Assembly (NCBI RefSeq): GCF_011045215.1 | Contig: NZ_CP049201.1 | Reading direction: 5' to 3' (one strand) | DNA from: Escherichia coli | GTDB taxonomy: Bacteria; Pseudomonadota; Gammaproteobacteria; Enterobacterales; Enterobacteriaceae | DNA: 64,000 nucleotides | Part shown: piece after piece, positions 6,753 to 7,919 of the stretch | How positions within the stretch are numbered: the first letter of the stretch is position 1 | Layout: every line of letters starts with the position of its first letter | Notes under the pieces: model-generated | What the model was told of the DNA's origin: nothing | The model's input: the letters and a program-made list of their open reading frames with translations, nothing else | The model's database searches: none | Translations under genes and position numbers: made by a program

Positions 6753-7280
6753 AAAATTACTCCATAACCATATAAAACAAACCCGTGTGTACGAAAATGA
6801 ATCATCTCACACAGGAATTTATATTAACGCTTCAGTCTATAATTAAGAAGTCTGACCACGTTATACTCTGCCAAAGATACAGCCGGGATAAAAATTCTCA
6901 TTACCAGTTAAAATTGTTATATTTTATTTATGGTCTGAAGGAGAATGTGTTTCTGTTAAGGTGGAAAATATACATAATGAGGCGCTTTCTTTCTGTATGG
7001 ACAAAGGTGGTCCTTGTCTACCAGACAGTACAATAGTGTGCGGGTTGTTATTATCAGTTACAGATGTAGTGCTATTGGTAGTGTGTTTTACATGTTGAAA
7101 TAATTAACCCGGGAATATACAGATTTGTTCTGTAAAACTCCTGAGGAAGCTGTTGTCAAATTGCACAGAAATGGCAAGGGGGCTGGTCGTACCCTGAAAC
7201 GGAAGAGTGCGCAGAATGAGTTTTGTCGCGATGGTTAGGGGAAAAACGGCAATAACACAGGTAAAAACGCTCAGTACCAG

Positions 7281-7919
7281 GTGGCATCATATCGTAACAA
7301 TGGTTTTTTTGGCCTGGTTGACGGCCTGAACTTTGCAGTACAGTACCAGGGTAAAAATGAACGTAATGATTTAGATCATTATACCAAAGGAAACGATGAT
7401 GGTTTCGGTTTCTCCACTACCTATGAATACGAGGGGGTCAGCGTTGGTGCAACTTATGCGAAATCTGATCGTACAGACATGCAGGTTCGGACAGGGAAAA
7501 CGCTCCCGGAGTTGACCGCTTCCGGTAAAAATGCAGAAGTCCGGGCGGCCGGTCTGAAATATGATGCCAATAACGTTTATCTGGCAACAACCTATTCTGA
7601 AACACAGAATATGACAGCTTTTGCTGGTGACTTTATTGCAAATAAAGCACAAAACTTTGAAGCAGTTACACAGTATCAGTTTGATTTCGGTCTGCGTCCG
7701 TCCATCGCTTATCTGCAGTCTAAAGGTAAGGATCCTGGTATGTGGGGTAACCAGGATTTGGTGAAATATGTTGATGTTGGTGCGACTTACTACTTCAATA
7801 AAAGCATATCCGCGTTTGTTGATTATAAAATCAACCTGCTTGACAAAAACAATTTCACGGATGTTCTGGGTATTAACACAGATGATATAATTGCCACTGG
7901 TCTGGTATATCAGTTCTGA
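7281..7919 (+). pseudogene. General porin (OmpC/OmpF/PhoE family) C-terminal fragment, 5-prime truncated
   Basis: Translation matches porin C-terminal half: [24 protein letters not shown] ... [28 protein letters not shown] ... [25 protein letters not shown] ... GLVYQF; in-frame TAG at 7236..7238 and non-porin sequence upstream, so the signal peptide and first half of the barrel are absent. Confidence 0.8.

Follow-up and report, generated by a model that had tools for sequence, protein, structure and literature searches.

The closest described relatives of the locus reported here are phage-type general porins. PA-2 Lc, prophage OmpD/NmpC and Salmonella OmpD are complete proteins of ~365 residues that function as trimeric 16-strand porins. 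The solved general porins OmpC, OmpF, PhoE and OmpK36 share their fold, but they are more distant and are encoded by chromosomal core genes. One phage-type member is familiar in an inactive state: K-12 nmpC, a quiescent pseudogene in the cryptic prophage DLP12, lies between the Q and lysis genes of that lambdoid prophage, keeps its promoter and 5' end, and carries IS5B near its 3' end. The nmpC/lc 3' UTR of DLP12 and PA-2 has itself drawn attention; Castillo-Keller et al. are said to have identified it in 2006 as ipeX, a sequence whose expression lowers OmpC and OmpF. Porin export is Sec-dependent, and a product without a signal peptide could not arrive at the outer membrane.

Here we describe a porin locus in a 64-kb stretch of Escherichia coli DNA (64,000 nucleotides, hereafter the window). 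Very probably it is a dead and decaying pseudogene of a phage-type (NmpC/Lc/OmpD) general porin that has lost its 5' end and sits at a constant place within a mosaic genomic island of E. coli. The parallel with K-12 nmpC is close in several respects. Both are phage-type general porins inactivated in E. coli, the DLP12 nmpC 3' UTR (the ipeX region) is homologous to that of the remnant, and intact members of the nmpC group share ~81% protein identity with it. The damage, in contrast, falls at opposite ends: the 5' 153 codons and the promoter are gone from the remnant, and there is no insertion sequence (IS) at its junction. The setting also differs, since the remnant lies in a type VI secretion system (T6SS)-bearing genomic island and nmpC in a prophage. 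Compared with PA-2 Lc, the prophage OmpD/NmpC proteins and Salmonella OmpD, which form its closest sequence family at both the DNA and protein level, the remnant encodes only strands 6–16 and no export signal. Features of the locus are listed in the table.

Table. Features of the truncated porin locus and its flanks, in window coordinates
Feature	Position	Strand	Basis or remark
yfdX-family gene, intact, divergent from the remnant	6141..6752	-	Pfam YfdX E=5.6e-39; annotated YfdX in C5 and RM13752
167 bp joined to the porin remnant and co-inherited with it in every case	7114..7280	.	Common to RM8082
In-frame TAG closing the frame upstream	7236..7238	+	Sequence and translation
14 in-frame non-porin codons ahead of the homology	7239..7280	+	No protein or DNA alignment to porins
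Porin remnant	7281..7919	+	Codons 154–365 of an NmpC/Lc/OmpD-type general porin plus TGA stop
Retained porin 3' UTR	7920..8071	+	Homologous to the prophage nmpC/lc 3' UTR (ipeX region)
ProQ/FinO-domain gene, 170 aa, convergent with the porin	8553..9065	-	Pfam ProQ E=1.5e-23

The porin identity of the fragment is secure. No stop interrupts the frame between 7239 and the TGA at 7917–7919, and its 226-residue translation, which ends in ATGLVYQF, matches Pfam Porin_1 (PF00267) far beyond chance (E=4.5e-82; 276.6 bits, cut-off 23.7 bits), covering only positions 121–337 of the 337-position profile. In BLASTP, residues 15–226 align without gaps to residues 154–365 of a 365-residue prophage porin at 81% identity. 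An initial annotation made from the sequence had described the C-terminal 210 residues of an OmpC/OmpF-type porin running through GLVYQF. The porin end is borne out by the Porin_1 match, and the count needs correction, as 212 residues are porin. The GTG at 7281, also the start chosen by the ORF lister, corresponds to Val154 of the 365-residue precursor.

The same annotation placed an in-frame stop ahead of the fragment, unrelated sequence beyond it, and a lost signal peptide and N-terminal half. The stop is there, as a TAG in both sequence and translation; there is no in-frame continuation upstream, as the TAG shuts the frame and the 14 codons that follow it are non-porin. By sequence comparison these codons would be part of the DNA that replaced the porin 5' end. 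Alignment to full-length porins, which the annotation had proposed as a check, located an abrupt end of similarity at ~7272–7281, and DNA alignments with both a prophage porin and the intact island allele described below place the breakpoint within the same interval. Nothing before ~7275 resembles any porin or porin upstream region, and homology starts only at residue 154 of 365.

What is missing amounts to 153 of 365 codons (42%), that is, a 23-residue signal peptide and 130 residues of the mature protein. Ahead of 7281, none of the frames that run on into the remnant ORF encodes a signal peptide. On a strand map from an AlphaFold2 model of the intact allele, a model of moderate confidence (pLDDT 61), strands 1–5 span residues 33–116, the L3 helices residues 122–147, and strand 6 residues 152–157. 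The remnant thus begins within β-strand 6 and keeps 11 of the 16 strands; a complete barrel is not encoded, with strands 1–5 and the L3 region (122–147, including PEFGGD at 133–138) absent. The C-terminal aromatic β-signal (YQF) is retained, in the ending GLVYQF.

The nearest relatives of the fragment are NmpC/Lc/OmpD porins of lambdoid prophages (81% amino-acid identity), with OmpC-type chromosomal porins at ~68–76% over the same region. In DNA comparisons, copies of the identical locus aside, lambdoid-prophage porins again match best (77–78% identity), among them phage PA-2 lc, prophage genes named ompD or nmpC, and a porin of strain PSJ-12 located between essD and a Q-antiterminator fragment. 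Homology to PA-2 lc, the prophage porins and the DLP12 nmpC 3' region covers window positions 7274–8045/8057. Since it extends into the phage 3' flank for 126–138 nt after the stop codon, the 3' end of a phage-type porin cassette is present in full. The location is not that of a prophage porin. Such genes lie between the Q antiterminator and the lysis genes, as at prophage loci L003 and L010; the remnant has neither and is instead surrounded by yfdX, a ProQ/FinO-domain gene, DUF4222 and a T6SS cluster.

In some strains this position of the island holds an intact counterpart. Among 5.8 billion proteins searched, a single full-length porin was far closer to the remnant than any other: P0002, deposited at NCBI as EKN8423214.1, 'porin OmpC [Escherichia coli]', 365 aa. 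Over residues 154–365 the two are 92% identical in amino acids (tblastn) and 89% in DNA. P0002 is full length and has its own upstream region, both of which the remnant lacks. It aligns end to end with Omp36, OmpK36, OmpC, PhoE and OmpF (E-values down to 3e-134), and it has a 23-residue signal peptide, with the mature protein beginning at A24. The gene is rare: five or six draft E. coli assemblies have it, and the 5,426 complete genomes lack it altogether. Where it does occur (L005–L009) it sits at the island position of the remnant, followed by the convergent ProQ/FinO-domain gene, ORFs of 207 and 77 aa, DUF4222 and tssB-tssC-tssK-tssL. The window is 98% identical to these loci from 9700 onward, 89% over 7290–8057, and 80% over the ProQ gene. 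Because its ProQ neighbour is only 80% identical, P0002 is a sister allele at the orthologous position rather than the direct ancestor of the remnant.

The surroundings of the intact allele are themselves scarred. In the intact-porin islands the native upstream region is only ~470 bp long. Its boundary resembles, judging by terminal sequence, what we take to be an IS903/IS5-family end fragment, with an IS66-family element further out (L005, 1178–1546 and 1–1177); the intact locus is thus flanked by IS scars too.

The truncation junction is shared among many strains. It is identical in six of 5,426 complete E. coli genomes (C5, RM13752, RM11911, RM13745, F2_407_2_2 and RM8082), mostly from cattle, and the truncated locus is also on hundreds of draft contigs. 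The exact 212-residue ORF is indexed in 225 blocks of public assemblies; among the matches listed, it lies between yfdX and the ProQ/FinO gene in 10 of 10 places, and a T6SS cluster or a two-partner-secretion/CDI locus follows downstream in the places listed. All six complete genomes carry the PGAP label 'porin', pseudogene, 'incomplete; missing N-terminus'. The remnant is thus already known, in that RefSeq annotates the identical locus as a partial porin pseudogene.

RM8082 exposes a further junction. Its match to the window starts only at 7114, with complete divergence upstream; the segment 7114–7280 therefore travels with the remnant, and 7113/7114 marks a second junction, formed later. The gap between that junction and yfdX is filled by the yfdX upstream region (6753–7113). 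The DNA that took the place of the porin 5' end (6753–7280) had no match in phages or plasmids by sensitive blastn, and within complete E. coli genomes it matched only the six carriers. Two 22-mers from it were absent from 100,044 species-representative genomes, one 22-mer was absent from JGI metagenomes, and small ORFs in the interval gave no Pfam match. An inverted repeat of 17 nt with two mismatches (7123–7139 and 8225–8241) brackets the remnant; we treat it as chance because roughly 0.4 such pairs are expected in 3.4 kb, by a rough estimate, and because it does not fit the 7113/7114 or 8267/8268 breakpoints exactly.

The initial annotation had suggested looking for the lost 5' half elsewhere in the genome; it could not be traced either in the window or in the six carrier genomes. 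Searches with the intact allele (tblastn and sensitive blastn) found neither the 5' half nor the upstream region in the 64-kb window. In the complete genomes (5,426, with the six carriers among them), nothing resembled these sequences more than a prophage porin of 81% identity, compared with the ~89% expected of an allele-matched half. This absence of anything closer, from a search insensitive to a very divergent half, makes deletion or replacement of the 5' half likelier than its inversion or translocation.

Whether mobile DNA did the damage is a separate matter. The initial annotation called the fragment a likely remnant left by adjacent mobile DNA. Its status as a remnant stands; the proposed cause is conjectural, as there is no IS end at the porin junction and the junction is invariant while IS content varies. 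The window has IS4/Tn5-like (507–1922), IS110 (2658–3677) and IS66 tnpC (3863–5365) genes. The last of these, the nearest transposase gene, is 1.9 kb from the junction, and intact yfdX plus 528 bp free of IS sequence separate the two. On the yfdX side other strains carry ISL3, IS100 or Tn5-like elements, and the porin junction is identical throughout. IS-mediated truncation is plausible in an island so rich in IS; the mechanism we infer is a single illegitimate recombination or deletion.

The locus has decayed since. Polarised against a prophage porin, amino-acid replacements number 13 on the remnant lineage and 2 on the intact lineage (binomial p=0.007). Six of the 13 (T156S, G192D, F206V, W241R, A283T and N328S) alter residues on which 30 intact family members all agree; when each intact porin was left out in turn as a control, it differed from an otherwise unanimous set at 0–4 columns, with a mean of 0.77. 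W241 is still ancestral in truncated copy P0124, and A283 in P0123 and RM8082, so W241R and A283T post-date the truncation. In the RM13752 lineage a 1-nt deletion at 7433 shifts the frame and leaves a 146-residue ORF (P0121), found on 141 contigs. Polarised nucleotide counts (12 synonymous to 13 non-synonymous on the remnant lineage versus 10 to 4 on the intact lineage) do not differ significantly (p=0.19), and silent changes are assigned to branches unreliably, because the outgroup is saturated at synonymous sites (dS ~1.16).

The locus bears two marks of a pseudogene, truncation relative to an intact 365-residue orthologue at the same position and signs of relaxed constraint or further disruption among copies. 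Against that reading, no stop has yet closed the 212-codon frame in the window or in many assemblies, and divergence of the remnant is only moderate. Taken with the PGAP calls, the orthologue and the post-truncation decay uphold the initial annotation's view of a non-functional remnant.

We propose that in an island ordered yfdX, porin, convergent ProQ/FinO-domain gene, DUF4222 and then a T6SS or CDI cluster, one ancestral event would have replaced the porin upstream region and first 153 codons (signal peptide, β-strands 1–5 and L3) with unrelated DNA. This event, presumably a deletion or an illegitimate recombination with its breakpoint at ~7272–7281, would have left the remnant without a promoter, ribosome-binding site or export signal of its own. 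No porin would then be made, and the sequence would have drifted from that point. The remnant would persist only by virtue of its position between retained neighbours in a horizontally spreading island.

The neighbourhood supplies further signs of mosaicism. The ProQ/FinO gene adjoins the porin, intact or truncated, in L001, L002, L004–L008 and L011–L020, whether a T6SS or CDI locus lies further downstream. Islands that diverge by 2% in their T6SS flanks diverge by 20% in this gene. A minus-strand ORF-like stretch of ~90 codons (8209–8480; …IREWKEEFNEVVILNPGQLSEYLEYVVQTG…), situated between the ProQ gene and the 3' UTR of the porin, lacks both a start codon and a Pfam match. The intact-porin islands do not have it, and it may represent a further remnant of a gene. 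On the strand opposite the porin, a 276-residue ORF (7371..8201) was considered and rejected as a gene: it has no Pfam match and the composition of a spurious frame, and it is closed in both the intact island allele and the prophage homologue.

On a larger scale, IS4/Tn5-like transposase genes with identical Pfam scores lie in inverted orientation at 507–1922 (+) and 51335–52750 (-). They bracket ~50 kb containing the yfdX-truncated porin-ProQ module, the whole T6SS cluster and several defence-type genes, an arrangement that could be composite-transposon-like or simply two IS copies. The T6SS cluster is complete (11609–37361 and 42158–43522), with tssB, tssC, tssK, tssL, an OmpA-like gene, hcp, clpV, vgrG, a class-3 lipase effector, tssM, tssA, tssF, tssG and tssJ; a VasL-like gene is set apart from the others by inserted T5orf172 and NERD-UvrD helicase genes. 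Defence-like genes within or beside the cluster (38895–45662) encode a T5orf172/MUG113 protein, a NERD-UvrD helicase and an OLD-family AAA/TOPRIM nuclease. Further on, a type I restriction R subunit is divided between two ORFs (HSDR_N and ResIII, 53656–55617; EcoEI_R_C, 55720–57072) ahead of intact hsdM and hsdS, and the split gene (53656–57072) is probably a disrupted hsdR.

Several readings other than a dead pseudogene deserve to be weighed. An assembly or sequencing artefact is effectively ruled out, since the junction recurs unchanged in six genomes that were finished independently and in many drafts produced by different projects. A more biological alternative is that the GTG-initiated ORF of 212 residues is translated and that a half-barrel fragment has a function, for instance as an envelope stress trigger or a decoy. 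In its favour, the frame is open from a GTG start, the exact ORF recurs widely, and the YQF β-signal at the C terminus is intact. We nonetheless regard this as highly improbable: no Shine-Dalgarno motif precedes the GTG at 7281 and no signal peptide is encoded, so any product would remain cytoplasmic; invariant barrel positions are substituted, W241R included; a frameshifted derivative circulates on 141 contigs; and PGAP calls the locus a pseudogene. Promoter-like sites in 6700–8600 number four, with 4.7 expected by chance. The initial annotation had considered expression from the GTG unlikely, and the absent Shine-Dalgarno motif and chance-level promoter matches fit that judgement, which would hold as far as sequence can tell. 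The fragment might alternatively act as a silent cassette, a gene-conversion donor that varies the phage-receptor or antigenic surface of prophage or chromosomal porins. It spans the surface-loop-rich C-terminal two thirds and is 77–78% identical in DNA to prophage porins present in most E. coli genomes. We give this idea almost no credence, as such identity is too low for efficient homologous recombination, the fragment is single copy with no repeat architecture, the top homologues include no mosaic porins with remnant-specific substitutions, and the decay pattern is that of neutral sequence.

The remaining alternative concerns RNA, and it starts from the 3' UTR, which has the sequence and structure homology to the nmpC/lc 3' UTR expected of an IpeX-type riboregulator. 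It aligns with the 3' UTRs of DLP12 nmpC (over 7920–8057), the PSJ-12 prophage porin and the intact island allele. Hairpins at 7934–7966, 7969–7986 and 7994–8011 are kept, and a terminator-like stem at 8049–8066 is weaker than in intact alleles. RNAalifold detects compensatory changes in nine pairs among the four sequences compared, and the single-sequence fold is far more stable than shuffled controls (z=-5.55). An Rfam scan of 6000–10000 returned no family at E<=1. Such preservation of a structured 3' UTR could reflect either young age or function. The remnant might accordingly be retained as an ipeX-like riboregulator that lowers OmpC/OmpF synthesis, perhaps together with the adjacent ProQ/FinO-domain chaperone. 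In favour are the homology to both the DLP12 nmpC and PA-2 lc 3' UTRs, the preserved hairpins with their covariation and stable fold, and a ProQ/FinO-domain gene that is the invariant convergent neighbour of intact and truncated porins alike; two published articles list IpeX as an sRNA acting on ompC (PMC3333887, PMC5745476). On the other side, IpeX is the 3' part of a porin transcript, and here the porin promoter is deleted, with no promoter above chance to replace it. The terminator stem is weakened relative to intact alleles, the hairpin covariation arose between intact lineages and is thus uninformative on the period after truncation, no Rfam family matches, the comparison covers only four sequences, and the link to ProQ/FinO is one of gene adjacency alone. 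Retention for such an RNA is therefore improbable in our judgement, a surviving RNA function being unlikely because the porin promoter is gone. Transcription of the 3' UTR might continue, for instance through reading on from the filler DNA, and yield a porin-repressing ipeX-like RNA that is possibly a ProQ/FinO client; we consider this very improbable. An ipeX-like RNA function is the only non-trivial reading that remains for what is, very probably, a dead pseudogene.

By itself the remnant carries little weight, as one more decaying fragment in an IS-rich mosaic E. coli island. It does have practical consequences. Gene callers that do not flag pseudogenes list a 212-residue or 146-residue 'porin' or 'PhoE', and protein databases are polluted as a result. 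The deposited fragments (P0121–P0134) go by the names 'porin', 'outer membrane porin protein LC' and 'phosphoporin PhoE, partial', and these entries are annotation noise from a pseudogene. The invariant porin junction, conversely, is a handy lineage marker for the island family. For the biology of these islands, the locus means that a phage-type porin cassette, consisting of a coding sequence and an ipeX-like 3' UTR, became a fixed part of a T6SS/CDI-associated island beside a FinO-domain gene. If the ipeX-like function were real, this pairing of a porin 3' end with a FinO-domain gene would be a mobile module tuning outer-membrane permeability.
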